Shown in pieces: positions 14,147 through 61,798 of a DNA stretch of 64,000 nucleotides (positions are counted from its first letter, which is position 1; each line of letters starts with the position of its first letter). This DNA comes from Octopus vulgaris (lineage: Eukaryota): positions 102,114,001 through 102,178,000 of the forward strand of contig OX597821.1 in assembly GCA_951406725.2 (NCBI GenBank), in the 5' to 3' direction. The notes beneath the pieces were generated by a model. That model was not told where the DNA came from, did not search any database, and worked only from the letters and a program-made list of their open reading frames with translations. The translations under genes were made by a program, and so were the position numbers.

Positions 14147-14298
14147 GCTCCACTGACTCACCTACATCAGATAGGAGACTCAACCATTATTCATATACCA
14201 GTAACAATAAAAATAGCAGTAATCACCAAAATCATGATAAAAATCATAAAAATGATAAGGATATTAAAGAACAGAAAGAAAAAGACCATAAAGCAGAG
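14147..14298 (+). CDS. WAC: WAC internal coding exon A (low-complexity S/N/K/H/D-rich region upstream of the WW domain)
   Basis: Pyrimidine tract + ttag acceptor and gag|gtaaat donor. 152 nt, phase 1 to 0. Translates xSTDSPTSDRRLNHYSYTSNNKNSSNHQNHDKNHKNDKDIKEQKEKDHKAE and joins the WW exon in frame. Confidence 0.8.
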
Positions 14299-14460
14299 GT
14301 AAATATATGAATCTGTCTTCTGTCTGTGTTACTATTTCTGCTTTTAATGTTTTTGGTAATATATAAAAAAATAATCCCTCCCCAATTATTTTTGTTACAT
14401 CTGAAATAGTATATTTAGCATATAACTTACCATATATAATAACTCTTCAGTTGCCTAAGT

Positions 14461-14797
14461 TTATCTTGTTTCAGTCATTTGAGAGCAACAATGCTAGGGT
14501 TCTACCTTGAAGGGTTTAGCCAAGTAAATTGACCCCAGTACTTATTTTTTTTTTTTTTAAAGTTCGGTACTATTGGTCTCCTTTGCCAGACTGCAAAGTC
14601 ATGGGAATGTAAACAAGCCAACACTGGTTGTCAGAAAGTGAATAAACATGCTGGGCTTTCATGCAATTTTTGTCTATGAAATTCACTCACAAGATATTGG
14701 TCAACTTGGTGGTTATAGTTGAAGACACTTGCCCAAGGCCTCACACAATGACATGGTTGCAAAGCAAGTGTCTTAACCACACAGCCATACTTGTGCC
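14461..14797 (-). mobile_element. family B tRNA-derived SINE
   Basis: Reverse head cttaaccacacagccat, body gacacttgcccaagg, tail ttgtttcagtcatttga. Confidence 0.8.
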
Positions 14798-15224
14798 TAT
14801 AATGGATAGATAGTTCACATGCTTAAATGACCCCGCCCCCAATTTACATTTGCTCAGTATATAATTTTTATTATCAAGAAAACCTGATGTTTCTGGTGTC
14901 TAGAATTATAGTACTGTGTTTTTATGGACATTTTAAATTTATTTAAGAGTATTTGCTTGACATGCTTAGGAATTAGTAAACTCCACATACTGTTGTGTAG
15001 TAGTGTGGTTTTGCATGTCAGTACATGCATGTGAAGTTGTCTGTGTACTGTTTGACTGTGTGCATCCTGGTTTTAAAACAGGTCAGTGTCCCTGTATGTC
15101 ATAGGAAATAACTAAAAGGTTTGGCTACAGGAAAGGCATCCAGCTGTAAAACACAGCCTCAGAAAATTTGTCCAATCTATTCCACATGGAAGGTGAATGT
15201 TAAACGATGATGATATGGATATAT

Positions 15225-15630
15225 CGTTGTTGTTTTAACTTCCACTTATTCATGCTTACTTGGGTCTGATGGAATTTGTTGAGACAGCTTTTCAACAGCT
15301 GGATGCCTTTCCTATTGTCACTTGGTTCCAAGTAAAGTAATATTTCTCCATCGCTGGACATGTTTTTCACAGAAGACTGGAAACAAACAACCTGGCTTGT
15401 ATGATTCTGCTTGTTTACAACCACCATGTTATATCAAAATAAGAGTACAGACATGAACGTAACAACCTCCCCGGTTTCTTCCAGTTTCAGTCTACCAAGT
15501 CCACACAGGCTTTGATTGGCTTGGGGTTTTAGCAGAAGATATTTGCCTAAGTGCTGTGCAGTGGAACTGAACTGGAGACTGCATGGTTGGGAGGCATGAT
15601 TCTCAACTACACAGCCACACCTGCACCTAT
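15225..15630 (-). mobile_element. composite SINE (B head + A-like tail)
   Basis: Tail ttttaacttccac...acagctggatgcctttcct; head gtggaactgaactgg...actacacagccacacctgcacc. Confidence 0.65.
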
Positions 15631-16293
15631 TGGTCTAATTAAATTGCTTCATCAAATAGCTAAACATACAAGCCATGACTCACTATAGCCCCCTTATGTT
15701 TCTTTATATCTCTTTCTCCACTGCTTCTACCCCTTGCACAACATTCTACTACATTCTGTTTCCGATGTCCCCCACCTTACCCTTTTACATACTGATATTT
15801 CTCATAATCTGCATCCCCACCCTGTTCATCACTTACATTATCCTCCACTTATGCTGTATGAAGCATCCACTTGCTCATCTTCCTCACATGATCCACCGTC
15901 TGTGTCTTCTCTTATGCTCACCTTCTTGTTTCTTCCTCTTCTCTATTGCAAGATACCTGTATCTTTCTATAGTACTCTAGCCTTTCAACACCTGGCATAC
16001 AGCCACCCACCTCCACCTACTTCTCCCAAATACTTTCTCTTAGTTGTAGGTGCCTTTTCTGTCTCCTTTTCTCTGTTCTTTTTTGTCATGCAAGTTACAT
16101 AGCAACCTCACTATGTCAGTGGCACTCTGTAAACTGGTTGGCAGAAAAGGCATCCAGCTATAGAAACTTAGAAACCTTACCAGAGATGACTTTGGAGCTC
16201 AACACAGACCTGCAACTCACCAGTTCCCTGTCAAACAGTCCTACTTGTGCCAGCATAGAAACCATTCATTAAATAATGATGATTATATTAATA

Positions 16294-17793
16294 CATCATC
16301 ATCATCATCATCATCGTTTAACATCCGTTTTCCGTGCTAGCACGGGTTGGACGGTTTGATCTGGCAGTGTTTCTACAGCTGGATGCCCTTCCTAACGCCA
16401 ACCACTCCGCGAGTGTAGTGGGTGCTTTTTATGTGCCACCGGCACAGAAGCCATTCGAGGCAGGGTTGGCATCAGTCACGTTCGGATGGTGCTTTTTATG
16501 TGCCACCGGCACAGAAGCCATTCGAGGTAGGGTTGGCATCGGTCACGTTCGGATGGTGCTTTTTATGTGCCACCGGCACAGAAGCCATTCGAGGTAGGGT
16601 TGGCATCGGTCACGTTCGGATGGTGCTTTTTATGTGCCACCGGCACAGAAGCCAGTGGAGGCTGCACTGGCAACGGCCACGTTCGGATGGTGCTTTTTAT
16701 GTGTCACCGGCACAGGTGTCACAACTACTGTTTCCATTGATATTTGGTTCGATGTTCATGTACATGCACTTGACTCAACAGGTCTCCTCAAGCACAGCGA
16801 GATGTTCCGGGATCCCACGATCGGTTGATGCTTTTTATGTGCACAGAAGCCAGTCGAGGCGGTGCTGGCGTCGGTCACGCTCGGATGGTGCTTTTTATGT
16901 GCCACCGGCACAGAAGCCAGTCGGGGCGGTGCTGGCATCGGCCACGTTCGGATGGTGCTTTTTATGTGCCACCGGCACAGAAGCCATTCGAGGCGGGGTT
17001 GGCATCGGTCACGATCGGATGGTGCTTTTTATGTGCCACCGGCACAGAAGCCAGTGCAGGCTGCACTGGCAACGGCCACGTCTGGATGGTGCTTTTTATG
17101 TGTCACCGGCACAGGTATCACAGCTACTGTTTCCATTGATATTTGGTTCGATGTTCATGTGCCACCGGCACAGAAGCCATTCGAGGCAGGGTTGGCATCG
17201 GCCACATTCGGATGGTTCTTTTTTATGTGCCACCAGCACAGAAGCCATTCGAGGCAGGGTTGGCATCAGTCACGTTCGGATGGTGCTTTTTATGTGCCAC
17301 CGGCACAGAAGCCATTCGAGGTAGGGTTGGCATCGGTCACGTTCGGATGGTGCGGTCACGTTCGGATGGTTTTTATGTGCCACCGGCACAGAAACCATTC
17401 GAGGTAGGGTTGGCATCGGTCACGTTCGGATGGTGCTTTTTATGTGCCACCGGCACAGAAGCCAGTGGAGGCTGCACTGGCAACGGCCACGTTCGGATGG
17501 TGCTTTTTATGTGTCACCGGCACAGGTGTCACAACTACTGTTTCCATTGATATTTGGTTCGATGTTCATGTGCCACCGGCACAGAAGCCATTCGAGGCAG
17601 GGTTGGCATCGGCCACATTCGGATGGTTCTTTTTTATGTGCCACCGGCACAGAAGCCAGTGGAGGCTGCACTGGCAACGGCCACGTTCGGATGGTGCTTT
17701 TTATGTGTCACCGGCACAGGTATCACAACTACTGTTTCCATTGATACTTGGTTCGACATTCATGTGCCACCGGCACAGAAGCCAGTGGAGGCA
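16294..17793 (-). mobile_element. young family A retroposon with an expanded internal tandem array
   Basis: (CAT)n tail + gtttaacatccgttttccgtgctagcacgggttggacgg, then acagctggatgcccttcctaacgccaaccactcc running directly into the 67-bp array. Confidence 0.85.
16421..17793. repeat. GC/CpG-rich minisatellite, 67-bp unit, about 20 units in several variant types with higher-order order
   Basis: Unit ggtgctttttatgtgccaccggcacagaagccattcgaggYagggttggcatcRgtcacgttcggat starts at 16421, 16488, 16555, 16622 and 16689 (period 67). Confidence 0.95.
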
Positions 17794-17949
17794 GTTTTAA
17801 TTATTTTGCTTCTAACACTTTAAAACCACATAAATCAACAATTTATAGAATCTTCTGCTTCAAAATCCTTTCTTGTGTGTGTGTGTTTGTATTCACTGAT
17901 GTACTGATATATTCAGTTTAACAAACTAGGCATATTTCTGAAAATAATC

Positions 17950-18245
17950 CTTGGCTGTGTGATTAAGAAGTTTGCTTCAAAACTGTGTAGTTCTGGGTTC
18001 AATCGCAGTGTATGACACCTTAGGCAAGAGTTATCTTCTGGTGGATAACATTCTGGGTAGAATTTGGTAGGCATAAACTACAAAGGCCTGTTTTGTGTGT
18101 GTCTGTGTTTATTATGTCTACCGGCTAAAAGTTGTTGTTGTTTTATGTCCCTTAACTTAGTGTTTAGACAATTAGAAATCAATGAAAAAGAATTCTCGTG
18201 TTAATACGACAAACTTCAATGATAGTACCCTAGCTTAGTAAAAGA
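17950..18245 (+). mobile_element. family B tRNA-derived SINE
   Basis: A-box-like tggctgtgtgattaag, B-box-like gggttcaatcgc, body gacaccttaggcaag, A-rich tail. Confidence 0.7.
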
Positions 18246-18494
18246 AAAAAAAAAAAGTATTAAATTTTCAAATACGGATACAAGTACGATTTTTAAAAGA
18301 AATCATCTGGTATGCAAAGAATTCTAATATATGTATTTGTGGGTGTATTTTCACAATTGGGCAGTAGATGATGTGAAATTACATCATATATTCAGTGTAG
18401 GTGTGTTTGTACACATGTTATTTCTCTTGTTTTTTCTCACCTGAAGTTGTCACATAGATAACGACTGCTTTCATCATTTTATTACAAATATCCT

Positions 18495-18700
18495 ATCATT
18501 ATCACCATTTAATGTCCTCTTTTCACATTGGTGTGAATTGGACAGTTTGATAGGAGTTGGCAAGCCAGAGGATTGTGCCATGCTCTATTATCTGGTTTGG
18601 CATGGTTTCTATGGCTGGATACCCTTCTTAACATCAGAGTGTATTTGGTTCTCTTTATATGGCACCAGCACTGGTGAGATCACCAAGTAGCTTGCAAGAC
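18495..18700 (-). mobile_element. decayed family A SINE
   Basis: atcaccatttaatgtcc...ggtttctatggctggatacccttctt. Confidence 0.55.
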
Positions 18701-18777
18701 AAAAGTCCCTTATCTCAAGGGGAGAAATAATATTGGGGGAGGCGGTTTTGTGCAAGTTGATCAGAGGTTAAAAACTA

Positions 18778-19022
18778 ATGGCTGTGTGGTTAAGACACTT
18801 GCTTTGCAACCATGTCACTCTGTGTGAGACCTTGGCCAAGTATCTTCAACTATAACCCTAAGTTGACTAATATCTTCTGAGTGAATTTCATAGACAAAAA
18901 TTGTATGAAAGCCTAGCATGTTTATTCACTCTCTGACAACCAGTGTTGGCTTGTTTACATTTCCATGACATAGCAGTCTGGCAAAGGAGACCAATAGAGT
19001 AAGTACCGGACTTTTAAAAAAA
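18778..19022 (+). mobile_element. family B SINE, near-identical inverted partner of 14550-14789
   Basis: atggctgtgtggttaagacacttgctttgcaaccatg...; reverse-complement match of about 90% by eye. Confidence 0.8.
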
Positions 19023-19749
19023 TGCTGTAGAGAAGAAAAATGGTTACCCCATCTGGGAGAGAGAAGATGGTGGTGAAAGTATGTCAGGCTGTACCCTCAT
19101 GGTTGGGCTATAACCCTTTCCATAACTTTCATGACCGGGTCCAGTAATTTGACACCTATTAAATTACTTCTACCAAGGGCATTTTGTTTACTCTTGTAAC
19201 AGTTGACTATAATGCTGCTACTCTAGTCATTGGGTATGATATCTTCCTGTTCAACCTGATTAACTACACAGGTGACAAGGCACTATCCCATCCACCATAT
19301 ATTTTAAGCATCTTGCTTGTACTTCCTGACAGATTGGGAGCTTTCTCTGTCTTCATATTCTTAATCGTTTTATCTGTTATATTGCTGTTAAAGGATAGCT
19401 GGTCCCTCTCTCTTTCTCCTATGCATTCTCCTCTGTTAGCTTTTTGTAGTAGTCTATTTTCTTTCAAAATCATGAAGTGCAAGTGTTCCATCATCCATCC
19501 ATATATACATCTTTCCACATTACAATTTTTCTCTAATACACTATCATGCTATCCAGAAAACCTCATGCTTCTGATCTTTACACATCCTTTTTGTTTCTCA
19601 CCTTGCAAGATAAATCTGCTGTCTATTTTCTCTTCTAGCTTCTATCTTCTCTGCTATCCCCATTCTTCCAATCTTTCCATGCCTGTCACTTTTATGGTTT
19701 TGTCAATTTCACAAAACCATTATTCCATCACTTATGCACGAAAATATTA

Positions 19750-21842
19750 ATTTTTAAACACACACAGTACAGTATGTATATACATAAAACATTTGAAGAG
19801 AAATGCATTTGGGAATATCTCAGAATATGTTGTACAGTACATACTTGCCACAAATAACATTGACTGCTATTTGATAAACAGTAGTTCAAAGGGGAATTCT
19901 GGCAGGAAGAGAAGCACTATCTATTTCAGTCTTGTTCATCAGTATATGCAGAAATGAAGAACTTGTCCAAAGTTATTTCATAATTACAGAACATCATCAT
20001 CTTGTACAGTTCAGAATAGGAAATAGTTTCATTATCAATACCTCTTGGGATTTTTATTTACATTCACAATTAGGATCATTAACAGCAGTGATCTATGGAA
20101 CTTCTGCTGTAAATGCCAATGATTTAGCCATATTCTTTGCAATCAACTGAAGTGGAATAAGTGGTGCTTCTATATCCTCTTCTTGCCATGCACCTTTCTC
20201 TTTTTCTAATATGATTAGCTCCTCGTTAGACCAATGTTTTTTGTAAGTTATCAGCATCATCATCATCGTTTAACGTCCGCTTTCCGCGCTAGCACGGGTT
20301 AAACAGTTCGACCGGGGTCTGGGAAGCCAGGGGCTGCACCAGGCTCCAGTCTGATCTGGCAGAGTTTCTACAGCTGGATGCCCTTCCTAACGCCAACCAC
20401 TCCGTGAGTGTAGTGGGTGCTTTTTACGTGCCACCTGCACAGGTGCCAGGGGGGTCCAGCATCGGCCACGATCGGTTGGAGCTTTTAATGTGCCACTGGC
20501 ATGGGAGCCAGCCAAGGCGGCGCTGGCAACTTTTAACCACACCGTGTTCTATGAATCGTAGTATCTTGCTAAACTTTCAGATAGTCTGATCGTATGTTTA
20601 CCAAAAACCATTTCATCTTATGGCTTGATTATTGTTGTTCACTACATCCACAATGTTGGGATTTTTACCAAAAGTCTCTAATTGTAAGTTTCTCTTCTCC
20701 GTCGTAGTTTTTATGAGTTCTTTCAAAGTTCTTTATGTTTGAAATTAGCTACCACACCTTGATCCATTGGCTGACACAAAGAAGATATATCTTGAAGATG
20801 TATTTTAATCTTACATTATCAGAAATATTTACGCTTGCTAGTTCACTTAGTAAGTCATGCAAGCCTAATTTGAATACTAAATTGCAAGTAGATTAAATTT
20901 AGCATACCCTTGAAAGTTCTTGGAATTGGAGAATGATACATAACTAGGGGCTTTGATTTCATATCACTAGCAACATTTCATCCCACAAGAGGTATCAGAT
21001 ATTTGGAAGCTTTAAAGTGTTAGGTTGATATTTTTCTTCTCTAGAAATAAAAGTTGTAATCAGCATGTATTTCCAGAAAAGTCCACTTTTGTCAACATTG
21101 TACATGTGTTCTGGTTTTTAACCTTCTTAGAGTAATAATTTCCTTCGGCTCCTCAGAATTAGTAGCAGCTTCTGTCTTAGCACTGGAAGTTTCACAGGTC
21201 ATTTCAATGTTTTGCTAATTAAGACTCTTCTTAAACCTTTCTAACAACTGAAGGTATTATGCTAGAAAATGCACTTCCACTTTTAACACCTTGTTATACA
21301 AACTTATAGCTTTCACTTAAATGACCAACAATCCCTTAGACTCTTTTGCACCACTGTCCTTCACTTCCATTTGTTAGTCTTTTTTCATTTTGAATGACTA
21401 ATGTATTCATACTTACTCATTAGTAGCTAAATTCAATAGTTGTGGTGACAAACACGAAATCCTCTCCAAATTGTAAAACAGTAGAATCCAAGAAAAGTAG
21501 TGATGTTTTGCATTGGCAAAAAGTAGTTGTCTCATTGCTTAGGATGTAAGGGGAATGTAATGGAGTGAGCTGATAGATGCTGGTAAAATATTGAGATCAA
21601 AACAAAACGAGGTCATTTTAATTGATACCCACAAAAATAAGGTAGAGGTGGAAGGGGGAAGACATGCTGATGAGATTTGAGGAAAAAAAATATTAAAATA
21701 ATTTCAGTTTTGAAAATAAAAATTTTCTCAAGTTTACATAAAGGCAGAATTACATGAGTTCCCAAATTTGGGGTCATACTTTACAATATCTGTAAGCATG
21801 GAATTCCACAACCAGAGTTTTCTGTTATATGAAGGATACCTG
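19750..21842 (-). mobile_element. decayed Tigger/pogo DNA transposon
   Basis: Minus-strand remnants LERFKK, YNVDKSGLFWK, TFISREEK, KPLVMYHSPIPRTFKG and QPMDQG. TIR-like tacaggtatcctt end at 21842; other end uncertain. Confidence 0.7.
20255..20530 (-). mobile_element. young family A SINE inserted in the Tigger remnant
   Basis: catcatcatcatcgtttaacgtccgctttccgcgctagcacggg...; CpG-rich; carries 2 divergent copies of the 67-bp unit. Confidence 0.85.
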
Positions 21843-22940
21843 TAATTAAAATTTCTCAGTTTACTACATCAAGTATAACATCTACTTTCTCTTTTATTCA
21901 CTGTATTTATTTTGTTGAAAGTGCTGGTTTGATTTTTGTCCTCTAATATAGTGCCATTTTGATAGTGTTCTGGGTTGAGTATTTTGAGGTAATGTTATTG
22001 CTCTGCTAAAGGCACTCAAGAGCCAGATGGTGGTAATGCACAAGGCAATGGCTCAAATGTGCCACCCAAATAAAAGGAACGGTCTCTTCAAAAGGTTTCT
22101 ACAGTTTCTGTCTATGAGATATCATCCAGAAAATTTTGGTCAACCTGACTATTATAGAAAACACTTACCCAATGTGTTGCACAGTGGGATCCAACCTTGA
22201 ACCATCTATCTGTGAAATAAGCTTGTTAATTACCAAGCCATGCATACAGTATTCTTGCTTTTTAGAACAGCATATTGTTCTATTCCATACAACTGTTTGC
22301 AGCTATTTAAATGAGTCAGGATTAGGTATTTTGGCAATAGATGGACTGCCATGGTGGAAAAGAACACTTTTACAACTTGTTCTCCTGTTTCTCTCAAAAT
22401 TACTATTAATAAATTGCTTTTGATTTTTGACCACATGTTTGGACTGCTTTATATAATTAATTAAAAAAAAAGCAACTTGATTCTCTTCTGCTCTATTTGT
22501 ATTCTTTCAACTACTTGCCCTCGAAAATTAAACCAAGGATTGGCATGTAATTTGTATAGAGCACCTATTTATAGAAAGGAATCATTGTTAGATTTATAAA
22601 TATCACAATCAAAATGGATTAGAAGTCTTTGCTTTTATTAGTTAATATAACTTTGATGGCAAATAGAAAGATAGTCTCATGTTTAAGTTTGATTTGTTTC
22701 AGCTAGCTCTCATTTATACTCAATTCTTGTTATGGTTGGTTTTGACCCCTCTCCTCACACATTACTCTCTCGCTCTCAGTTTATCTCAACTCAGAAGATT
22801 CTAAAATTAGATAAGCTAAATTCTTGGTCAGTAGTTAAACTACAGCAACTTAAGTAAATTTATTACATAAGTCACCTTCAATATCAGGAACATAAATAGA
22901 AAAAAGGTCACTTCACTAAAATAAATCAATACTAAATTAA

Positions 22941-22977
<37 letters not shown>

Positions 22978-22978
<1 letters not shown>

Positions 22979-22990
22979 GGATTTTAATCA

Positions 22991-23040
<50 letters not shown>

Positions 23041-23053
23041 TGATTAAAATCCA
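22978..23053. repeat. perfect 76-bp palindrome centred on (AT)23
   Basis: tggattttaatcagc-(at)23-gctgattaaaatcca. Confidence 0.95.
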
Positions 23054-31802: not shown

Positions 31803-31930
31803 GTACAAAAGTCCGCAGTGCGGGTGTTTGGTGATTGGTCAGAACACATTAGCTCTTCGGGTAAAAAGTACTATTATAATTGTAAGACAGAAGTATCACA
31901 GTGGGAAAAACCTAAAGAATGGCATGATAT
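31803..31930 (+). CDS. WAC: WAC exon B encoding the WW domain
   Basis: tttttaatag acceptor and at|gtaagt donor; 128 nt. Translates [42 protein letters not shown], nearly identical to the WAC WW domain as I recall it ([30 protein letters not shown]). Confidence 0.95.
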
Positions 31931-35121: not shown

Positions 35122-35198
35122 GCCGAACAAGGGAACAGATAACAAGTTACAAGAAAATAAAGCTCCAAGCAAGCACAATGCCAATTTACATAGTAAAT
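35122..35198 (+). CDS. WAC: WAC exon C
   Basis: cttccag acceptor and aat|gtaagt donor. 77 nt, phase 2 to 1, matching both neighbours. Translates (M)PNKGTDNKLQENKAPSKHNANLHSK. Confidence 0.85.
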
Positions 35199-37157: not shown

Positions 37158-38404
37158 CAAGGGGTGTTCATTAAAGATTTCCTCTGATCCTCTTCTCAAG
37201 GACTCGAATAAACGAAACTTGGCATAATTATTAGTCCTTCTCTATATAGCCACCACCAATGGTGACACACTCCTCTCATCGCTTAATGCAGCTGTGAAGA
37301 CCTTGTCTATGGAAGTTGGTAGGTAGCACCTGGAGCCAAGATTCTACCTTAGAAATAAGTCCATCGTCATCCAAAAAGTGCTTCCTCTTAAAAAGAAACT
37401 TCATGGTTGGAAAAGAGGTGGGAGTCAGATGATGCAAGGTCGGGTGAGGAAGGGCTTCATAGCCACAGGAGTGTGCTTTCATTTGGGCAACATGTGCATT
37501 GTGAACTGGGGTATTGTCTTGGAGGAGGCAAACTCCTTTGGTCAGCATGCCACACCTCTCTGCTTTGATGGTGTTCTGCAATTTCTGTCTGCAGAGAAGC
37601 ATAATATGCCCCATTAATTGTGGTGCCCTTTGCCAGAAAATTCATCATCACTACTCTGCACTAGTCCCAAAAGACTGAGCATCACCTTGTCTGCTGATGT
37701 TTGGACACGAGCAATCTTTGTATATCGTGAGTTCTGCTTCCATTGCTTCAACTGCTCAGTCTCAAGATGGTAGTAGTGATAGATCCATGTTTCATCCTGT
37801 GTGATAAGTCTGCCGAAAAGTCACCTCATTTTCTTGGCATATTGCCAAAAGAGCCTGGGAGCAATTGACTTATTCCTGCTTCTGTAAAGGTATGAGCATC
37901 TGGGGAATCCATCATGCAGACAACTTCAGCATGTGCAAATGGTCATGAATGAGTTTTTTTCTTCACTTCTTGGGCTGGTTGCTGAACAGTTATGCTTCAA
38001 TCTTCCAAAATGGTGGCTTCCACTTTATGGATGGTGTCATCATCAATGGTGGAATGTGGTCGTCCAGGAATAGGAGCAGTTTCCACCAATGTCTGATAAC
38101 ATTTGAACTGGCAGTGCCAGTGCTTCACTATGTCATATGATGATGCATTGTCACCATAAACTTCTTTCATCTCATTGAAAGTCTCTTTTGGTATATGACC
38201 TTTCAAGTGTAAGAACCTGATCACTGATTTGCATTCAACTGCTTCCATTAATAACATCCTAGTCCACTTCAGCCATAAAGGACAAACGAATACCAGTGGA
38301 AGGCTGCAGTTTACAATGTAACATGTATGGTTATACCTGTACAAGTTCTATTTCCTGCAATAACCAGAAGTGGGTTTGGGGAAATCTTCAATAAACACCC
38401 TCTG
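37158..38404 (-). mobile_element. full-length decayed mariner (DD34D-type) transposon, ~1.25 kb
   Basis: Imperfect TIRs caaggggtgttcattaaagatttcc / ggaaatcttcaataaacaccctctg with a TA flank. HTH region VIRFLHLKG...EVYGDNA...GRP, LLQDNTPVH and EALPHP motifs; frameshifted. Confidence 0.9.
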
Positions 38405-40985: not shown

Positions 40986-41324
40986 CATTTCCAGCCTCAG
41001 ATGACAGAATCAAACATTCCAGTGTTGGAGAAAAATTTGATAAACACCATAAGGTCAGTTTACATCAATCATCAAAATCATCAGACAGATCATTATCTGA
41101 GAAAATTAAAACTGGACCGCCTAAAGATTTGCAAGATGTTGTTGCACAGAGGACTAGCCAGTGGGTTCAAAAAGGCGGACAGTTGCAAGAGACATCAATC
41201 AAGGATAATTTTCGCAAGGATAATACTCATGTTCATAATTTCGATAATACAGGAGTTAAGAGACAACGACGGGACAGTGAAGGTAGTAGATCTCTTGGAC
41301 CTAGCACACCAAGGAAACTGGAAG
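40986..41324 (+). CDS. WAC: WAC exon D (disordered S/K/D/Q-rich region)
   Basis: catgcag acceptor and aag|gtaaat donor. 339 nt open, phase 1 to 1: (S)FPASDDRIKHSSVGEKFDKHHKV...KRQRRDSEGSRSLGPSTPRKLE. Locally higher GC/CpG than flanks. Confidence 0.85.
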
Positions 41325-42029
41325 GTAAATATTCAAAAATATATTCTTTCTATATTGCACACAGACAACACAGAATTTAATGTATCCACTATGTTTATTG
41401 TGAAACACAAACACATGCATGCTCATATACACCCATATATATATTAAAAAAATTTGAATTTTTCTACATTCATTTGTAAATAACTGTGTTTAAACATGCA
41501 AAAATAGATACTTTGATCAATAAAAGGTGATGAATAATGATTGAAGAAAGGATGGTGGATGTTAAAATATTGTTGGATATTAGTTTTAAAATGCTACGTA
41601 GTCATTAAAATAAAACCAAAAGATACTCTGGGATACTAATTCTATTCTCAGTACATTGCTGCTTTGGTCATATTTGAAAATGCAAATATCAGTAGAAAAA
41701 CTGTAGTTAGGTGAAACTATGTCTTACACCTGATTTGAACAGAATCCTAATCTCACAAGTGCATTTGGTGGTGATGATTTTTTTTCTTCTTTTGCAATGA
41801 TTTGCTTAGTAAAAAAAACCATACTTATTTGTACAAACTCCTTTTTTTTTTCTGTCTGTTAAATCCAATCGCTACGCTAGATTTCATCAACTCGACGCAC
41901 TTGTCTGTTTGTTTTCTTTGTCTCAGTACACTGTTATCCCTATCTACAAAGTACTATGTTGTTTGGAGAGTACATTTCTATTGCAGGTTTTATCTTTGAG
42001 GATTTAAGCTTAGTTCAACAATTTAATAA

Positions 42030-47631: not shown

Positions 47632-47637
<6 letters not shown>

Positions 47638-50161: not shown

Positions 50162-53100
50162 TAGTCCTTGAGCCAGACCTCAAAATTTCTGTATCTGTAC
50201 CACATAGGGTGAATAATTCTTTTGGTAATTTTTGACTTGTTATATGTCTCTAGTTTCTATTTATATGATAGCCTTGTCAGAATGGTAGCTTAGTAGTTAT
50301 CACTTCATAAATAGACATACCTTCCATAAGAAACTGCAAATAAAAATTTCATGTGTTTTTATACTTAATATAAAATTGAATTGCTTATTTCATATGCATG
50401 ATATGTCTTGAACATAAAACCAAACATGACGCATCAAAACTGTTCAGTTTTCTTATGTGCACACAAGTCATGCCACTGGGAAAGTTTGTGTCAATTGTTT
50501 TCAAGTCAACAAAGATTTTCTGGTAGTATAACAGCTGCAGGTTAGCCAGGTTCTGGATCTGCCATGGATACACAGCATACCATGAAGCTAATCATCGTGG
50601 TCTTCCTCAAAATCCATCAGTTCTAATTCTGGCTCTCTGTTGCCGAATTCAGGAGCTTGGTTATCTCATGTTCGTAGCTTGCACCTGTATGTGCACCTCA
50701 GGCCATTGCTGAGGCAGCTGCATGCTGGTAGTTTGCAGGAACGCATACATTTGCAAAACAAAAGCTGAAAAACAGCATTCAGTGCAGGTGGGTTGTGCAG
50801 CCAATCAACGGCAAGATCACTCTCCTTGTCTAATGTCCAACCACAGTTGATGGGGCTTGGAATGAAGGGTTGAGCCTATAGACATCTTCTCCAGATGGCT
50901 GCTTGGTAGTTTGCATGAAAAGCATGCATGAACCACTATGGAGGTAGTTGACTCGACTCAATTTCTCCACATCTAGTGCAAAAGATCTGGTATCAAAGAT
51001 AATTTACTTCAGTTATTGAAGCAGAAGACATGTACATTTGGCATATTATCATCTGTAGTTTTTGAAATAATTCAGGAGATACATCCCAAGGCCACCCTAG
51101 TTCACTGAAGGCTTCTTGGAAGGTCTTGCTGGATTTCATCTGTTTGAACGTTGTCAGCTTTCCACAGCCAGCAAAGGCACTGACCGTATCACAGCCTGTG
51201 AAGGCATGCATGCCAATCTAAGCATCAGATTCCACCTCCCAGTGCATGACTCATTCATGAAGTGTGCGTGGACTTCAAGACATTCAATGTGGAGTTGAGA
51301 TATCATTGCATAATAGTAGGTCTGGAATCGAGCATAGTTCACCTTGTCATAGACAAAACACCATGAGATCATCTTTCAGATGGATGCAAGATGGAGGATC
51401 CAGTCGCGTTCTCTGGAAGCTCATATTAGCCCAAGCATGATCTCCACCATGTCTATGATAGGGCATCCAGAAAGCTGACAGACTGTAATGCATCTAAGGG
51501 ATTCAAGGTGAGTTTGAAACGGCTCCAAGATCCTTGTGCAGGACTCATTTCCAAGAACCTCTTGGAGGGACATCTGGCTGACACTGCTTTGAAAGTTACC
51601 TATGACCTCAATATTTCTGCTAGGTGAGGCACATCTTCTCCATGATTGTCCTCTATCCATGGGAGAAACCCTTTCCAGTCAAACCTCATTAATGCTTCAT
51701 ACATAAGTTTGTGTACCCTGACTGCACAGTTGTATTTGCGACCTGTTATGATCCCAGCCACTGATCCATCTGCTGTGACACCTGATTCAACACATATCCC
51801 TGAGCTCTGCATCTTGAAATCACTTACTGATGATAGAAAAGAGGTTGCTAAGGTGTGGAAAACTCCCATTCTGATGATTATGTTTCTATACTTGTCTCTT
51901 TTCCACACTATTTCAGCCGCCTTGGCATACAGTGCTTGGTCAAACACACAAACTATCTTGCTGAGCTGCAAGGAATCCATGATTCGAGTAGTTTGTTTCA
52001 GTACTTTATTCACATTGACCATGTCTGTTGCAGGAGCATTGACAGCTGGCAGGTAGCTCTGGACAATTGTGACATCATTGCAGGTGTGGATGCTGAATCT
52101 TGCTCAGCTGCTTGTTGTCTGGTTCCCTGGGTCAGATATTCGTGTCAAAAGCCAAACATGGTTCTTTTTGCATTTTTGACCTGTTGGTCACTGTCAATTT
52201 CTGATGTCTCAGTCAAGGTCAGTCCAGCTCGCTTGCTGCCCAACATTATAGATTGGTAACAACTATGGAAGAGGACTAATGCTTCTTTTCTTGAATTTGG
52301 CATCTACTGACACAAAATTCTGTGGCATGGGCCCTGAAACTTTGGGCTGGACAGTGATGCCGTTGACCCTGTGGGAGATGCCTCCACCACTAAGAGTCTC
52401 TTCAAGGCAGTCAGTATTGTCCCAAGCCACAGTTGTGAATACACCTGAGTAGATATTTCCGGGCAGTGGTATGCCGTTTTCCGAAACTTCCAACTTCTGG
52501 TTGCAAAGGGTTGTGTCTATCTCTTCAATCTGTAAGAAAGACTGTATCCAAAGTGATTCAGTGTCTGTATCAGTTTGGTGTTTCCTGTAAGAGACTTCAC
52601 AGCATATGATGTGGCTCAATGGCTTTGTTTTGCCACAGGTAACGGCAAACACCAGGTCACTTCCAAAAGAAGTAGCAAGACGCTTGACCCTTTCTGAGGG
52701 GTTTGTCCACTTGTTTTCCCCAGTCAACAAGAAATAGAGAAATTTGGTAAGAGTTGGGTATGACATTTTGCTTGGTGCTTAGTAGCCATGTTTGTTTGAG
52801 ATCTTGTTTCTTTTTTTGCTGTCTCAGCTGCACTGCTGCTTTGGCCAAAGAATCCTCAGACAGAATTGTCTTTAATTCTCACAGTTCCTGATCCAGTCTG
52901 TGGTGTTTTTTGATAAGATCATCCATGAAAAGACTGTCTGGGTTTACAAGGAGCTTGCTCTGGTTATTGGAAACGAAATGGAGTTCTAATCCCTGCTAGA
53001 TGTATGAACAATGTCATATGTGTTGTAGTCATGAACAGAAGTACTTCAGTATGAGTATTAGTGAAATTTTATAAATCTGGAGGTGGTGGGGGTCTACTGA

Positions 53101-53213
53101 GCTGAAAGAGTTACCACGTTTTTTTACACTCATAGTGACCCTATAAACATTCTAATACCACTTAGGTGTATTCACCTCAGATGGTACTACTAACTGACAT
53201 GGCTCATGGACTA
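50162..53213 (-). mobile_element. Academ (AcademX-type) DNA transposon, internally deleted and pseudogenised
   Basis: 5'-TAG...CTA-3' termini with TIR tagtccttgagcca / tggctcatggacta and flanks tta/ttg. Minus-strand fragments AWDNTDCLEETLSG, VFDQALYAKA...RMGVFH, XPG-like HAFTGCDTVSAF.G.GK, ANYQAAIWRRCL and Cys-rich CKCMRSCKLPACSCLSNGLRCTYRCKL. Confidence 0.8.
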
Positions 53214-54054
53214 TTGTGAATTTCATTTTTATAAAACTTTAAAATTAATAATTTTTGTTAACTTTTTGGATAAAAAAATTACCATTGAACTTTTACTAGA
53301 CTTGATTGTAAAAGTACACCTATTGTTTAATGATTAACAGAATAGCTTTTAACTAGAAAACCATTTTGATAATTCACTTTACTTTGTGTTGTCACAGAAC
53401 AAATGCTTAGCAAGATTTTTCTATTACACATTTTAAAAAACAATCTCTGAATTTTTACATTTTAAATGTCAGGTGTTTATGATCTGGCAATTTTTTTTAA
53501 TTATAAAAAATACAATATATATTACTTGATATTAAAATTATTTAATAGTATAGAAAGAAACATTTAAATTGTGTGTGTGTGTGTGAGATTCTGGTTGAAA
53601 CACATTTGTGCTCTAATGTGTTATTGAATTACAAACGAAATTTTAAAAGGGTTATGCTCTTATAGCCGTGTACATACAGTCTTAGGAAAAGTATGGGCAT
53701 CATATTAACAGAAACTAAGTACATATTGTCATTTTGCTGTTTCCATTATGGTTTTATATTTTATTTTCGAATCGTTTGTTTGGAAAATAGTAAGTAACCT
53801 TTAGCAATACAATTTTATGAGCATACTTATGAAATCTAAAGAACATTTAATGTATTATCACTATTATAGAAGAAGATAACATTATAGTAATTTAAACTCA
53901 TTACACATCATCTAGCTTGAACAGCAGTTATAACTTGTACCTTCCTGAGTACGACGACCTTGCTCATACAACTAGAAAATGGGTAACATTTCTCACATGT
54001 ACGGCACATCTATAATTTTTAGGTTAAGAATGTGGAAAAAAATGTGTATTCTTC

Positions 54055-54350
54055 ATCATTATCACAGCTTTCACTTCTCCATGCTTGCTTGGGTTAGACA
54101 TAACTCATTGAGGAAGATGTTCTTTGGTCAGGTGCCCTTCTTGTCACCAAACATCGCCTGTTTTCAAGCAAGGTAATACTCTGCCAGGACCAGATATGTT
54201 CCCACAGAAAAGCAGAAACAAATGACTGCTAAATGGTGACACTTGTTTACAACTTTGACGTGCAGTATCAAGTAAGGAACATGCATCTGTGTGCAGGTAC
54301 ATGACATGCATCATTCAGATTCTGTCTAGCAAATTCATTTATAAGGCTTT
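54055..54350 (-). mobile_element. decayed composite SINE
   Basis: catcattatcacagctttcacttctccatgcttgcttggg...ggtgcccttcttgtcacc...ttcaagcaaggtaata, homologous to 15225-15630. Confidence 0.55.
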
Positions 54351-55179
54351 TGTTGTCCTAGAAAACATGAATTTTAAGGATTCAGCTTTCCCTTTCCTTA
54401 TTTCATGTATTTAACATCAGACATTTTATGAACAATAGTGTCATTAGCTAGGTTTTGTATGGCATGTTACTACTTCGCTGCATTTCTGATGATGTGAATA
54501 ACAAGTGGTGCTTCATGCAGATGCAGAATATGAGTATTTTTGTTTGATACACTATTATTGATTTCTTTGTCAGCATATATCTTTTGTTCTCTTGTGCGTA
54601 CACACACACACACAGTTTACTCTTACAGTAGGAGAAGTAAAACTGAATACAAAAGAAGAAAAAAAAAGTATATTCTACATTAGCTGAGAAGCTACAGTGA
54701 TCTAAAGCTCTACAGTTTCAATGCACTTAATCAAACATGCTGAATTGAGAGCATTGAATCTTTATATAATTTCAAAAAAAAAAATGTTATCAAACAGGTG
54801 AGGCATGGGAGAAGTGTTTGTGCTGTCCATGTCCCTATATGAATTTTCTGTTTTAAAATTACCTGAACTTTTTTATCAAAATTAATTGAAATAAAGGCAG
54901 CGTATTTTGATAGAAATACAATATCAAAACGGTTCAGATAGATTTGCAGGTTTTTTTTGTTTTTGTTTTTTTTTTGCATGACACTGTAATGGGTTAAAAA
55001 AAATTTGGGGATGGTTTCGTCAGTGTTTCTTTTACATGCACATATGCACACATACAAACTTTGACAGAAAAAGATTTTTTCTCTTTTTTTGAATGAATAC
55101 AATGTTGGTAAATAAGCTATTAGCATCCTTTACTGTTTAAATGTAAAGAACAATGTATCATTTATTAAATTTTGATAAT

Positions 55180-55920
55180 TATTCATTTAATCTTGAAAAT
55201 ATTGTATCCTAAATACTTCCTGTTGTTTTTCACATGTATTTGTAACCTAAAAGTTCTACATTGCACATCACACCATGTTTGTAGATATTGCTGTAATTCT
55301 TTGATAAATAGCAACTTTCAGTTCATTTGGAGTATCATGTGACAAACACTTTCCTTCCAAAGGAGATAATCAAAAATCAAGTAGGCTCTAGGAAATGACA
55401 TGTTCAGTAAATATTTCTTTAATATCCACATATAGCCTGTCCATTTCTAGGAAAAGGAAGTTGTGCAACTTGTTCACATAATGATCACAATTCATTTTTA
55501 CTACATGTCAGCCTTCTTCAAAGAAAAACGGTTTTGTAATACCAAAATTTTCTTCGTAACATTACACTTGTGTTCTCAGTGAAGGTTATGTACATTGTTG
55601 ACTGACCAATAGTGGAAGCTTTGTTCATTTATGGAAATATGTTTCATCACTCATGAGAAGTTTGTTGCAATCACAAGATGAAGATATACCAATATTCTTG
55701 CATACTTTGGTCTGAAATACCTTGTGCAGTGTCATACTTTAATATCGAATAATGAAAACTGGTTCTTACAGAATGTCTAACAATAGTGTTCTGAAAGTTT
55801 GTATATCTACTGATGGTCTTTTGTTTTCAATAATGAATTTCCCAGTCTGAAGTTTTCTATCCATGGTACTGTAGTCCAACAAGATACTTCTCCATAATGG
55901 CCTACATTAAAATACAAGCA
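55180..55920 (-). mobile_element. old Tc1/mariner-superfamily transposase remnant
   Basis: Minus-strand GITKPFFFEE and ELKVAIYQRITAI...IFK C-terminus-like segments. Confidence 0.5.
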
Positions 55921-55938
55921 AAAATTTTATGCATGTAA

Positions 55939-56103
55939 CCCTTTAGCATTCAGAGTAGTTTTGAATTAATCATGCATTATCACAGGGCTTTAAGATTTCA
56001 ATGTGTTCTTTTATTTTTGGAATGACATTGTAGAGTAGGTGGGAGGGAAGCACAAAATCTGGCCAGTTTGAATGTAACGCAGGTTGATTTAAAAGATGAG
56101 GGG
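55939..56103. mobile_element. decayed piggyBac-like MITE
   Basis: gtaa|ccctttagcatt ... gatgagggg|ttaa. Confidence 0.45.
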
Positions 56104-56514
56104 TTAAATAACAGCCACCAACATCTTAATGATAAAAGCATATAACCATGCTCCACTGCTTCATGGCTGTTGAGTTAGCATTTTGCTGCCCAATGGTCAC
56201 TGAATATGAGAGTTCTTTCTTCACCTCCCAAATTCTCGAAAGCCCAGTACAATAGCACCAAACCCAGAATGTCATTATGCTGAGTTTTTTTTGTGCATTT
56301 GTTTTCTATTAAAGCCTTGGGTTGACCAAAGCCTTGTGGAAGAAGTTTGGTAGACAATAATGAAAGGTTTTGAAAATGGTAGTAATTTGATGGGCATGGA
56401 TTCATGTGCTGAGTAGTGTTGGGCATCATGGTATGAATTCATTAACATTGGAACATGTGACCTTTTTTTCGTAATTGAGTTATTGATGACTCAATTACTC
56501 AAATGCCTAAAATA

Positions 56515-56910
56515 TTTGTATATTAGTGTGAACCATCATAGAAAAGTGTATTATTGGGATAAAACATCATGAGTAAGAAATTACAGGTTGAGCAGCTCAG
56601 CATCATTAAAAAAACAAAAAAAAAAAAAAAAAAACCCATCAATGGGTATGCAAAATATCAGAATACCATTGTTATATGAACAGTAATGAACAGTCTTTGA
56701 TGTTCTGCATTGAAGCATGGCACTGCACGAGGTATTTCAGACCATAATGTGTAAAGGATATTGTAGTTTGATTCAAATAAGTTTCATCCTTGTAAGATTA
56801 TAGGAAACCAAAAACCATTTATAGAAAACATTCTCAGTGTGGACAGATGACCTGCATCTTCTTTCTCATGAGTAGTGGAGCCATGTCTATTTGGTTTAAT
56901 GTCTAAGCAT
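56515..56910 (+). mobile_element. second copy of the same Tc1/mariner-like family, inverted relative to 55180-55920
   Basis: gcactgcacgaggtatttcagacc is the reverse complement of ggtctgaaataccttgtgcagtgt (~55709-55732); FHPCK (FHPYK-like) motif. Confidence 0.5.
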
Positions 56911-59734
56911 TATCAAAATGCTTCAGTTTGAAGCTTTTTCTTTTCTTTTTTTCTCCTCAATCCTATTTCTCTTGTAAGAAATAAATGTGATGTTCTTTAC
57001 AAGAAAGACAGGTGCAAAATATGGTGTTGTATTTTGGTAAGCGACTGGAACTGATTCCCTAAGGTTGCTAATGTCTCTGAAATAGGTGAAAAAATATTAC
57101 AGTTTTAACTTTTTGTCTCACTTGTAATAAGATTGAAACTGTGTAAGTATGTGTAAAAAAGAATCATATGACAACAATGTTCTTGCTTCTGTGAACTGGG
57201 CAAAAATCCTCCAATTATTTAATCATATTTTGAGTTGATATTTGGGATTTGAATTCAGAACCAGCATACTTGGCACTTTTCTATTTTGGACATCTCTGCT
57301 TGTTAAATAATTAGTAATTAATAATTACGACTCTATGTACTGGAGAAAAGAAATTGCAAAAGTCGCCAGAGATAAGAATTCAGTTTGAAATGCATTTAGC
57401 CATTCTACATCATCTTGGTAACATGGCAAAGAGTAAGTGCACAATTTAGACCACTTTTATTTGAAGAACGTTATTCTTCAAACATTTTAATTCAGAAAAT
57501 TATTTCTTTTTTATGGTGGTGAACAGTACTTAAAGTGCAGCTATCAATTAAAAATATTGTTATATAAGGAGATAGGCATACATTCATTCATAGTATTGCT
57601 CACACATACACATAACTACAATCAGTCTTTGAAAAATTGAGTTATTGCATGATGCTTAAAATCTAAGGAAGTTATAAATGAGTGCAAAGTTACAAGTTTA
57701 AATATCTAGTGAGTGAGGGCAATGTGCATTCTTCAAAACTACGTATAAAATATTCACTGCTGTAATATGTAAATAATATCCAAATTTCCAAAATTGTTCT
57801 GATAGCAGTAGAGAAAAATGGATGTAAGACTTTAATTTTCTTTTTCTTTTTTCTTTTCTTTTTTTTAAAGAAATTTTCATTCAAATAATAAGCCATGAAT
57901 TAAATTGTCAGTTCCTGTACAAACTATTTTTCTTAAATTTTTTAAATATTTACTTGTCTTTTTTTAAAACTTATATTTAAATCAAAATGTTAACTTCATT
58001 ATTACATTAGTAATAACATGAGATTTCACTTAATAAACAGTTGTTGGACACTGTTCAACATTGTGTATTTTGTGTTCTCCAAATTTTTGGCTATTTTTAA
58101 ACGGTTTATTAAATTTAATTGTAGAACTTAACAGAGAAACCTCAATAACAAAAGTAAAAGGTAAAGTCATATCTTCAAATATCTTAATACAGTGTTCACT
58201 TTAGCACTTATAAATCACACATGCATGTGTAAGATTTCTCATATGCCCTGTAATCAATGAACCTTTTGGCTACTACCTCAACTAAACATTCACAGTGCAT
58301 CTTTCTTTGCTGCTCTAAAGCACCATACTTTTATTATATATATTACTCCTTGAACTTATTTTTTACTACTACTTAAGACATCTGCTAATTATTTACCATT
58401 GGTACCCACTAGAAAGCACAAATTTGAATTTATCTATTATTGGTCTGTCACTAATACCCTGCGTTCATCCTAAAAAAAGCCCAATCAGATAATCCATCTG
58501 ATAATTTAACAGGAGTCATATAATACAGTAATACATTAAATTGCACTTTTGTGTCTAAACATTAATCTGTTGAGCCAGCAAGGGATATATATGGCCATTT
58601 AACTTTCTAGAAATTGCAGCTAGACCTTCAAATCACACAATGCCGTTTTCAAAAACGAATGGGCAATCTGGGTAATGTGATCCTGGATATAGTTTGGTGA
58701 GAGAAGGGAAAACTGGATGGTCATGACTGGAATGCTTTTGAAACAAAGTTCTCATGAAGTAATTAGCTAGGAAGAAATGAAACAAATATTCAATGTGAAG
58801 TAAATGATTGAGATACAGATTGATAATGAACTGTTGCTGGTAATCTTATGGGTAGATGGTTACACTAGTATTGATATATACCTTCAGAAAATATAAACAA
58901 AATAAACTGGAATTGGATTAAAGTTAAGCTACCAACAATTGTAGTAAATGCATGCTACATATATTCCATCTCTGGCTGCACCATAAAAGTTTGTTGATAT
59001 TGGAAATTGCAAATGTATTTTAATTCTTTCTAGACTAACAAAAGTACTAAACCACTAGTTTTTCAAAAATCATTAATGTTTTGCTCACTTCCAATTAATA
59101 TTAATAAAAGAAAAAAGAAAAAGTTGTGCACTTCGCCTGCCTGTCTGCCAGATTACATATCTTTCTATGTATCTTCTCCTCCTTCTGACTAGCTGACTAT
59201 TGCAATTTTAACTTAATAAGCTACACTCTCTATTATATCCTTATCTATTTCTTAGGCATTCAAACCTTTTGCCTATTTTGCATTTTCAAAGCAAAGCCAT
59301 TCGAAAAATATTTCTTGAAACTGTTTTTATAGTTCTATTTACATGTAAAGTTTATTATCAATGCAAATATGTTTTGCCAGTACTTCTTGTTCAATTTTAT
59401 CTCAGACATTTGCAACCCACTGAGTTCTGTCATTGGCCAGGTGATATTGTAAATATTTGAGCCGTAACTGCTGTTGTATCAGTCTGCATCTTCACTGCAT
59501 TGCTCACAAACTTAATGTTTAAATACTTATTACACCTACCACTTATTTCGTAGGTATAAAAAGATGAATTGCATTTTGCAAAAGCTAGGTTCTACTATTG
59601 GCATAGTTTTGCACATTTTTTAACAGCTTAATAGTGTGCTTTTAATATTCATGGTATAATCAACTCTTAAAAAGTAAGAATACCCAATGACTATTAGTTT
59701 GCCCAATTAGTGCAGAGATTGCCAAACCATAATA

Positions 59735-60623
59735 TGAGGTAGTGTCAAAAGGTTCCCTGACTAGTTATGGTTAATAAAAACATATTTACGTAAGTTTTAA
59801 CATCATCTTCAAAATAGTCACCTTGTGCAGCAATACACTGGTCCCAGCATTCTCACCACTTTTGGAATCCGGCCTGAAAGTTATTTTCCATAAGCAAGTT
59901 GAAGACCTGTGATTCACTCTGGATCTTGACAACAATTTTTAGAATGGTGACTTTTGAGCTGCATTTTCATCTTTAGCAGGTGCTAAATTTGGCAAATAGG
60001 ATGGGTGTGGAAGTGATACCATTTTATTTTAGGTGAGAAACTCATGAATGAGGAGAGCTTGATGACAGGGTGCATTGTCATGAAGAATGCAATTCTTCAG
60101 GCTCCATAGATCCAGTCACTTTTGCCGAATGTCCTCCCTCAAATACTTCAAAATGTCTTTAAAAAAAAAACAAACTTTAAATTGACAGTCTGGTCCTGAG
60201 GGACAAATTCTCGATGCACATTACCACATTTCCAGGGGTGATGCTCATGGCAGATCTTCCAGATTGCTTGTGGTCTTCCAGGGATGTTCTTGTGTTTTTG
60301 AAGTGCCCGTGCCACTTGAAACATTGCGTACGACCCATTGCCTCATTGCCATAAGCTTACCTAAGCATGCTCAATGTCTCTGTAGCAGACTTCCTAAGTT
60401 TAACACAAAAAGTTTCATGTTGACTCTTTGTTCCAATATCCTGTTCATGACGAAATCACAGCCTACAGCATACTCGGGATCACAAAAATACAAATTTCAC
60501 AACTTGTGAAGTAAACGTAGCAATGTGACTCAGTACACAGCCTGGTAAAGGTCACTTCTAGCTCTCACTTTGCATGCACTTGTCTTGCAGAACTAGTCTG
60601 GGAACTTTTTGATACCACATTCA
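59735..60623 (-). mobile_element. internally deleted mariner element (889 bp)
   Basis: TA flanks; TIRs tgaggtagtgtcaaaaggttccctgactagt / actagtctgggaactttttgataccacattca; CVKLRKSATETL...AYGNEAM, ILHDNAP and LPHPSYLPNLAP motifs. Confidence 0.85.
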
Positions 60624-60729
60624 TACTGTTGAATGTGCTGCCAACAGCAGATTCGCCCAATGTTGCATTCATGGTTTCATTCAGTTGTCTAATCACCAAC
60701 AACTATTGATGATTTGTGTGTGTTGTGGC

Positions 60730-60816
60730 ACTTCAAGTGTTTTGAGTTGAAGAGCTTGGTGGCTGTCTTCTGGAACTTCAAGTGTTTTGAGTTGAAGAGC
60801 TTGGTGGCTGTCTTCT
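60730..60816. repeat. local tandem duplication, 42 bp identical, period 45
   Basis: acttcaagtgttttgagttgaagagcttggtggctgtcttct at 60730 and 60775. Confidence 0.95.
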
Positions 60817-61729
60817 ACAACCTAATCCACATAGTTTGTTAGGCTAGTCAATCTAGCCTTCAAGTTGTATTTGACAACGAGGGCCTGGTGGAATTACTGA
60901 GCAGATGAAAAGCAGTGTTGTTGACAGTTGTTTCACAACTACTTAGTTAATAACAGACACAAGTTTCCTATATGCAACAGGTATTGCTGAATAAAGAGAG
61001 AATTTGCAAACGTGGTTACTAGCATGAAGCATCAATAGGACAAACATTTCAAATTAGTTTGCAGTCATGGTCCATTGAAATGGATATTGGAACAACATGG
61101 CATATCAAAAACTATATATGTGCATACTAAATACAAATGTCAGCACACAACCTTTTTTTTTGATAAATACTTTAATTTTAATATTGTTTATTAGATAAGC
61201 TTACTGCCAGATTTTTAGTGTAATTAATTTTGTTGCAATCTTCTACGTAAAACAACTTTAGTTTGCATCCAAATACTAAAATATCAATTCATTAGCAGTA
61301 AATCTTTTCTCAAACCAGGGGACTTTATTAACCCTGTATCATTTAAGTGGGCAGTAGTAGGATGCATTTGTCCAATATAGAAAATTGTGTGGAGGGGAAT
61401 GGATGCCAATGGTTTGATGAGAGTGCTATGGCCTTGGTTTTGGGACGGAATAATGTGGAGATATTTATCATTGGCATTTATTGGCAGATGGTTGTAGGCC
61501 TTAAGTAACCAACAGTGGTCTACAAGTTAAAGGAGGAAATTTAATTGATAATAACCAGTTTATGTTCCTGCTGTAAACTGTTAAGTGTGTTATTTGCAAA
61601 GCTTTACTGCACCCCCGTCTCTCTCTCCTTCCCTGCTGCTTTAATAATTTTTCTTTCTTTCAGGCACCTCTTTTCCCTGTATTTTCGGATATTTTATTTC
61701 ATATTTATTTTTTATTTTTCCCGTTATAG

Positions 61730-61798
61730 CATTACAAACTTTACAGAAATTACAAGAGGCCATATCTAGGCAGCTGTCCATGAGTACACAGCATACCA
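61730..61798 (+). CDS. WAC: probable WAC exon E
   Basis: Long T-rich tract + ttatag acceptor and cca|gtaagt donor. 69 nt, phase 1 to 1. Translates (A)LQTLQKLQEAISRQLSMSTQHT, in frame with exon D. Confidence 0.75.

Follow-up and report, generated by a model that had tools for sequence, protein, structure and literature searches.

We analysed a 64,000-nucleotide (nt) stretch of the Octopus vulgaris genome (G000:C8:102114001-102178000, hereafter the window), which carries coding exons of the gene WAC, and found that the 5′ two-thirds of the WAC coding sequence (CDS) is open in the +1 frame as well as in its own. A homologous open frame is present in animals from corals to humans; since related animals share it, it is therefore likely kept by selection, and likely encodes a second, unannotated protein. 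The evidence comprises the open frame itself, the octopus AUGs with the sequences around them, a depletion of forced +1 stops in orthologous WAC proteins, homologous open reading frames (ORFs), a listed human initiation site and records that fuse the two frames. Judged from sequence comparison, WAC behaves as a dual-coding gene of the alternative reading frame (ARF) type with a putative protein product. We regard selection on the +1 frame as very probable, and it is probable that this selection is purifying, that the frame is translated and that the product itself matters.

An open +1 frame in octopus WAC

The gene was identified through exon D of the window (exon names as in Table 1), which matched two protein clusters whose members are annotated Octopus WAC isoforms. 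WAC exons were located by tblastn and genome searches and the CDS was then assembled by coordinates, three coding exons upstream and four downstream of the window completing it. The spliced CDS translates exactly to five annotated isoforms (P0001, P0003, P0004, P0005 and P0006), matches annotated WAC over its full length and contains both the WW domain (Pfam WW, PF00397) and the C-terminal coiled-coil region. The main frame is that of an ordinary WAC orthologue, as described for the family in PMC10136313. Exons A to E, as recognised in the initial annotation, have AG/GT ends and agree with the annotated isoforms. Of the five isoforms matched, three contain exon X. So do the two RNA contigs that extend beyond exon D (runs X12 and X13, from two studies), each of which joins C, D and X.

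In the spliced CDS the +1 frame has a stop at codon 2, none over codons 3-327 (325 codons) and 18 from codon 328 on. Several statements of the initial annotation hold on the spliced sequence: A-E are open in +1 for 249 codons to the TGA in exon E, all 10 NTA codons precede C or T, the +2 frame is full of stops (42 over the same 750 nt) and 220 amino acids (aa) is the correct count from ATG 14234 in spliced A-E. That ATG is nevertheless not the start of the ORF, which continues upstream through coding exons 1-3 to begin at the 5′ end of WAC. The amphipathic N-terminus read from it is consequently internal, the true N-terminus being encoded three exons upstream, and the predicted product is a basic protein (isoelectric point about 10) of 305-324 aa rather than 220. 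Inclusion of X, which had been overlooked, does close the frame, leaving 305-314 aa still open; this is the better-supported length, because both spliced RNA contigs over D include X. The initial annotation noted one hydrophobic stretch; the hydrophobic stretches of the predicted product fall within the synonymous null (P 0.07-0.3). A transmembrane role was considered and rejected: the best 19-residue hydropathy is 2.4 in birds and 1.7-1.9 in corals and octopus, but the octopus value lies within the null. All seven alternative-frame queries against Pfam returned no family.

The first +1 AUGs lie at CDS nt 11, 35, 38 and 44 (102072334, 102072358, 102072361 and 102072572), the earliest 10 nt downstream of WAC's own start. 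Starts were graded by the Kozak context rule (also stated in PMC2329644). Read from the sequence, the two starts of WAC have T at -3 with G at +4, and G at -3 with C at +4. A strong context, with a purine at -3 and G at +4, surrounds the +1 AUGs at nt 38 and nt 44, which are located at a conserved [NSD]-D-G motif. Suboptimal upstream starts are followed closely, on a shared exon, by a strong-context AUG out of frame, which is the arrangement sought for leaky scanning.

Two nulls were used to ask how often such a frame arises by chance. Synonymous shuffling within the gene predicted 8.6 stops, and only 1 of 200,000 shuffles reached 325 open codons; the C-terminal part of WAC is stop-rich and this null is therefore harsh. 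The second null, conditioned on dipeptides, was built from 53 control ORFs (22,867 codons) at 60 G protein-coupled receptor and cadherin loci, that is, from two gene families and not the whole genome. Under it the full open stretch has 0 stops at 23 at-risk sites against 6.5 expected (P 1.8e-4), and the C-terminal part has 18 against 10. None of the 53 controls gave p<0.05 and their longest open run was 116 codons. For A-E alone, in place of the crude chance of about 1e-4 given initially, the dipeptide null yields 0.003 and in-gene shuffling 1.3e-4. Exon D alone, where 2.8 stops are expected at the at-risk sites, gave P 0.036 and the three exons upstream of the window 0.056. The stop depletion in octopus is suggestive only, because a few genes per genome are expected at P 2e-4.

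Forced stops and +1 frames in WAC orthologues

It is the orthologues, not the octopus counts, that decide that the frame is kept open. An ATG followed by a codon starting with A (Lys, Asn, Thr, Ile or Met) forces a TGA in +1. We collected 120 main-frame WAC proteins, of which 95 with an intact N-terminus and WW motif were used and 25 dropped. Between the [NSD]-D-G motif and a point 40 aa beyond the WW domain, just 2 of 151 Met residues precede Lys, Asn, Thr or Ile, against 30.7 expected and 33 in reverse order; the same test downstream gave 81 against 90. Collapsing aligned sites, which lessens the relatedness among proteins but does not remove it, left 2 forced-stop dipeptides in 71 events where 14.9 were expected (P 1e-5; reverse order 15/72), with a normal rate downstream (47/227, 46 expected). 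Among 16 residues tested only Met was depleted in a directional way; Phe, its antisense counterpart, was not (29 vs 29), and Leu and Val dipeptides were weakly depleted (71 vs 83 and 85 vs 99), as expected where safe codons exist.

The depletion is confined to one region of the protein. Counts were 1/49 up to the end of the WW domain and 2/55 from there to the DISP motif (10.6 expected), and 30 aa past that motif the effect was gone (37/164 vs 33). By clade, to 140 aa past the WW domain, molluscs (named and assigned) had 1/70 against 14.6 expected, other protostomes 0/16 and deuterostomes 0/6. The proposal of a dual-coding or regulatory overlapping ORF gains support from the nulls and more of it from the orthologues, with another start and product than first suggested.

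A scan of orthologous DNA through the main frame gave 11 loci but did not recover the DNA behind the squid-like cluster P0002; the WW exon was open in +1 in 8 of 10 loci, and a single WW exon is open by chance with P 0.4-0.8, so each carries little weight. A complementary DNA (cDNA) found in this way, L028, cnidarian-like by protein similarity, is open in +1 over codons 4-278 (275 codons), with 0 stops at 20 sites against 4.2 expected (P 0.007; shuffle P 0.015) and 13 against 12.6 past the open stretch. It lacks the AUG of the motif and has one two codons further on. Exon D of a related octopus, represented by run X18, shows 2 differences in 339 nt, neither creating a +1 stop, vs 25 in 571 intron nt, and carries 1 synonymous change against 3.1 expected, a deficit without significance (P 0.19).

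A profile of eight +1-frame WW-exon peptides recovered 19 proteins among 1,228 candidates and, in a further search, 150 cluster representatives, such searches favouring long ORFs. The matches include 38 distinct coral-type sequences of 292, 298 or 300 aa with a shared start, in five groups 49-89% identical, and a bird-type cluster of 178 aa. Twenty of the 150 matches (158-616 aa) start at the homologous [NSD]-D-G site, by a pattern written after 44 N-termini had been viewed, and an annelid gene model shares its first 11 residues with the octopus +1 product. By inspection, several invertebrate +1 ORFs stop soon past the DISP motif; tetrapod ones stop within the exon after WW. P0094, P0155 and P0156, gene models whose reading begins in +1 or changes to it, were taken solely as read-outs of the frame. 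In a hydrophobic segment that precedes the WW domain, the third positions of WAC recovered from coral +1 proteins reach 88-96% identity, vs 57-84% in and after the domain. In one coral pair this amounts to 24/25 vs 102/157 (P 0.0009), in two others to P 0.07 and 0.09, and a by-eye count between human and bird gave 31/35 vs 26/39 (P 0.03), the segment having been picked after inspection in each case. AlphaFold on a coral +1 protein gave a predicted local distance difference test (pLDDT) score of 40 alone and 34 with 23 alignment rows, which is uninformative at such shallow input.

Possible translation and frame-restoring splicing, and competing explanations

Row 455 of a human candidate sheet from translation initiation sequencing (TI-seq; PMC11526972) is a WAC internal ORF (iORF) at chr10:28533617, in strong context and of 178 aa, which is the human orthologue of the +1 ORF. 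The available main text of that paper does not mention WAC. The same row holds a second human transcript, on which reading from this +1 AUG comes back into the WAC frame ahead of the WW domain, for an ORF of up to 684 aa. We found no description of an overlapping frame in WAC in a literature search that left most subscription papers outside its reach: in the portions available, seven supplements of PMC3741303 have no WAC row, WAC is absent from the main text and four supplements of PMC2329644 and from the main text of PMC1868773, and 'reading frame' occurs 0 times in the WAC paper PMC10136313. Nor did the main text of PMC13247117 contain a WAC internal ORF. PMC10136313 names RNF20/40 as a WAC partner in a reference title and reports surprising conservation of WAC's disordered regions; a second frame might account for part of that conservation.

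Four of 140 new profile matches end in the WAC C-terminus. In three vertebrate-like records (P0230, P0272 and P0299) the +1 frame runs through the WW exon and is succeeded by the WAC frame with the next exon missing; in the amphioxus-like P0331 the switch lies about 110 aa further on. The exon after WW measures 113 nt (3n+2) in the bird-like L021 and 77 nt in octopus, and the WW exon itself is also 3n+2. By computation, skipping of octopus exon C would bring ribosomes that read in +1 back into the WAC frame and give a WW-less product of 482-503 aa; loss of the 34-nt exon 2 would bring WAC's own start into +1 (316 aa). A skip of B and C (205 nt) would set D in +1, as the initial annotation had calculated correctly. 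Skipping of B and C was not seen in octopus, the C-D junction being present in both spliced RNA contigs over D, and neither was skipping of exon 2. Exon E has three AG sites whose offsets are 3n+2; they are a by-product of CAG and GAG codons and were not counted as evidence. In mice lacking Wac exon 5, total Wac mRNA is not lowered and exon-5 cover is halved (PMC11142245, PMC13541301). From exon order, mouse exon 5 would be the WW exon, and the mRNA data fit an escape from decay through a restored frame.

Under the mechanism that we propose, ribosomes would pass both WAC starts while scanning and begin translation at the AUGs within the [NSD]-D-G motif. Normal mRNA would then yield a basic +1 protein of 305-324 aa, presumably with a function of its own, while skipping of the 3n+2 exon after WW would join the +1 N-terminus to the C-terminal half of WAC. 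Such a fusion would retain the coiled coil of WAC but not its WW domain, and is predicted to compete with full-length WAC for its partners, a proposal that builds on the roles of these partners and of the WAC domains. Whether WAC has been this kind of two-protein gene since before the coral/bilaterian split, with a hidden protein reached by leaky scanning and a WW-less WAC made by a frame-restoring skip, we consider evenly balanced.

Several observations weigh against a maintained and translated second protein. Three loci (L029-L031) carry 5 +1 stops in 190 codons (3.2 expected) and another in exon 1, and the frame is thus closed in at least one animal lineage; in arthropods the forced-stop depletion is weak (6/52 vs 10.9, P 0.06). 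The +1 ORF varies in length (158-413 aa), its similarity between phyla is largely imposed by the WW domain, with no Pfam match, the octopus hydrophobic stretches do not exceed the synonymous null and the database matches to the alternative frame are biased to long ORFs. The TI-seq list is permissive according to its own authors (PMC11526972), the five WAC rows in a human ribosome profiling (Ribo-seq) table of 7,264 ORFs (PMC10032668) include none that is internal, and our search found no peptide evidence for the +1 product. As to the fusion, skipping of exon C was seen in neither of the two spliced octopus RNA contigs covering D, the four fusion records may stem from transcripts or from gene models and could be artefacts of the latter, and the authors of the mouse studies report no mutant band on western blots and no mutant isoform (PMC11142245, PMC13541301).

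Alternatively, the +1 frame could be translated and selected solely as regulation, diverting ribosomes and triggering nonsense-mediated decay at its internal stop so as to tune a dosage-sensitive WAC, the peptide being irrelevant. Such a role would suit the weak cross-phylum conservation, the variable length, the lack of a fold (pLDDT 34-40, subject to the shallow input), a +1 stop upstream of at least four junctions and a start whose position is the most conserved feature. However, 160-400 codons are far more than a ribosome sink or a trigger of decay requires, the depletion persists from the WW domain to the DISP motif, and one coral hydrophobic segment shows the raised third-position identity given above; we judge regulation alone rather unlikely. 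Constraint at the RNA level, by splicing enhancers, structure or protein-binding sites, with the open frame as a by-product, is very improbable: a splicing element could underlie the local third-position conservation that corals and vertebrates show directly before the WW exon, but stop triplets are avoided in +1 only, the +2 frame being replete with them, and the effect covers seven exons without sequence conservation between phyla.

That a disordered N-terminal half poor in Leu, Ile, Val and Met (13% vs 21% downstream) gives long +1 ORFs without selection is disfavoured and improbable. Some 25,000 genes would supply a few at P 2e-4, single WW exons are often open, the exons beyond the view of the initial annotation reach P 0.056 and one lineage is closed. 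In addition, +1 ORFs conserved among mammals are common, 1,689 being reported in PMC2329644. Against chance, every null takes the protein sequence as given, the Met test has a direction and is limited to one region with no effect on Phe, and the independently found cDNA L028 repeats the octopus pattern. Moreover, since L029-L031 are closed, composition does not force the +1 frame open. A selected frame whose product matters is our preferred reading.

Features of the window and known dual-coding genes

Table 1. WAC exons, landmarks of the +1 frame and other elements in and around the window. Positions are those of the window unless prefixed G000:C8.
Feature	Position	Strand	Remarks
WAC coding exons 1-3	G000:C8:102072324-364, 102072570-603, 102111811-970		41, 34 and 160 nt; upstream of window; +1 frame open
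WAC coding exon 4 (A)	14147..14298	+	152 nt; +1 open; +1 ORF enters from exons 1-3
ATG	14234..14236	+	CDS nt 323; internal, 7th AUG of +1 ORF
67-bp tandem unit	16421-17794		about 20 copies; higher-order periods
WAC coding exon 5 (B), WW domain	31803..31930	+	128 nt (3n+2); +1 open
WAC coding exon 6 (C)	35122..35198	+	77 nt (3n+2)
Decayed mariner-like transposon piece	37276-38347	-	Mos1 HTH_48 match at 38000-38347
WAC coding exon 7 (D)	40986..41324	+	339 nt; +1 open; 11 at-risk sites, 0 stops
GC-richer stretch	50385-52878	-	several broken ORFs
Cassette exon X	58125..58160	+	36 nt; missed in the initial annotation; included in RNA contigs from two studies
TAA ending +1 ORF if X is included	58146..58148	+	product of 314 aa (start at nt 11) or 305 aa (start at nt 38)
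Decayed mariner-like transposon piece	60148-60356	-	no Pfam match
WAC exon E	61730..61798	+	69 nt; carries TGA 61781-61783, the +1 stop if X is skipped; product of 324 aa (start at nt 11) or 315 aa (start at nt 38)
Decayed mariner-like transposon piece	63166-63485	-	no Pfam match

Exon X occupies the place of the DISP-motif segment of other molluscs, that motif being absent from octopus WAC. One-residue differences among the annotated isoforms stem from tandem (NAGNAG) acceptors at L004:1505/1508 and 1830/1833. Squid-like records P0017, P0018 and P0019 have an additional 27-aa exon between C and D, for which no counterpart was found in the window; P0018 reads it in +1, followed by a stop. An unspliced contig of run X5 (window 40990-41400) continues from exon D into the following intron, where the genomic +1 frame is open on to 41447. 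In the WAC 5′ leader, outside the window (L019:1427-1500), a 10-codon upstream ORF of octopus corresponds to an in-frame 25-aa N-terminal extension of the squid-like P0016; the leader is conserved except for one frameshift and contains many further upstream AUGs. Apart from WAC, the 67-bp tandem array accounts for the long ORFs at 16.3-17.8 kb, mariner-like copies are abundant in RNA contigs, and the GC-richer stretch looks like a decayed DNA element, none of its three pieces matching Pfam.

To our knowledge, described nuclear dual-coding regions that are reached by scanning are mostly limited to mammals or vertebrates. POLG with its ORF-Y or POLGARF (PMC7059407) resembles WAC in its long alternative frame over the 5′ part of a nuclear gene and a start near the main start; it also shows synonymous-site constraint, of which WAC has a local candidate signal in corals and between human and bird. 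Yet ORF-Y originated in placental mammals and uses a CUG upstream of the main start, whereas the +1 AUGs of WAC lie just inside the CDS and its frame extends from corals to vertebrates. Both Ribo-seq and peptides support ORF-Y, one row of a TI-seq table WAC. The mammalian ARF genes GNAS/ALEX, XBP1, INK4a/ARF and RXR-beta (PMC1868773) and the 'matreshkas' (PMC2329644) share with WAC a same-strand shifted frame conserved across species and a basic product without known motifs, although these screens covered mammals only. In RXR-beta, starting in the ARF brings translation back into the main frame when an exon whose length is not a multiple of three is skipped (PMC1868773), much as proposed here for the WAC fusion. 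The human iORFs differ in that PMC11526972 favours transcripts without the main start, while the +1 AUGs of WAC are on exon 1 together with the WAC start.

WAC is a chromatin and transcription gene whose loss causes DeSanto-Shinawi syndrome, a human developmental disorder, and a second frame bears both on the interpretation of variants and on the mouse exon-5 allele with its undepleted mRNA. If our reading is right, WAC alleles that count as 'silent' or truncating would hit or create unannotated products, and these alleles include DeSanto-Shinawi variants and the mouse allele of exon 5. A frame held open in corals, molluscs and vertebrates alike would rank with the oldest nuclear dual-coding regions.

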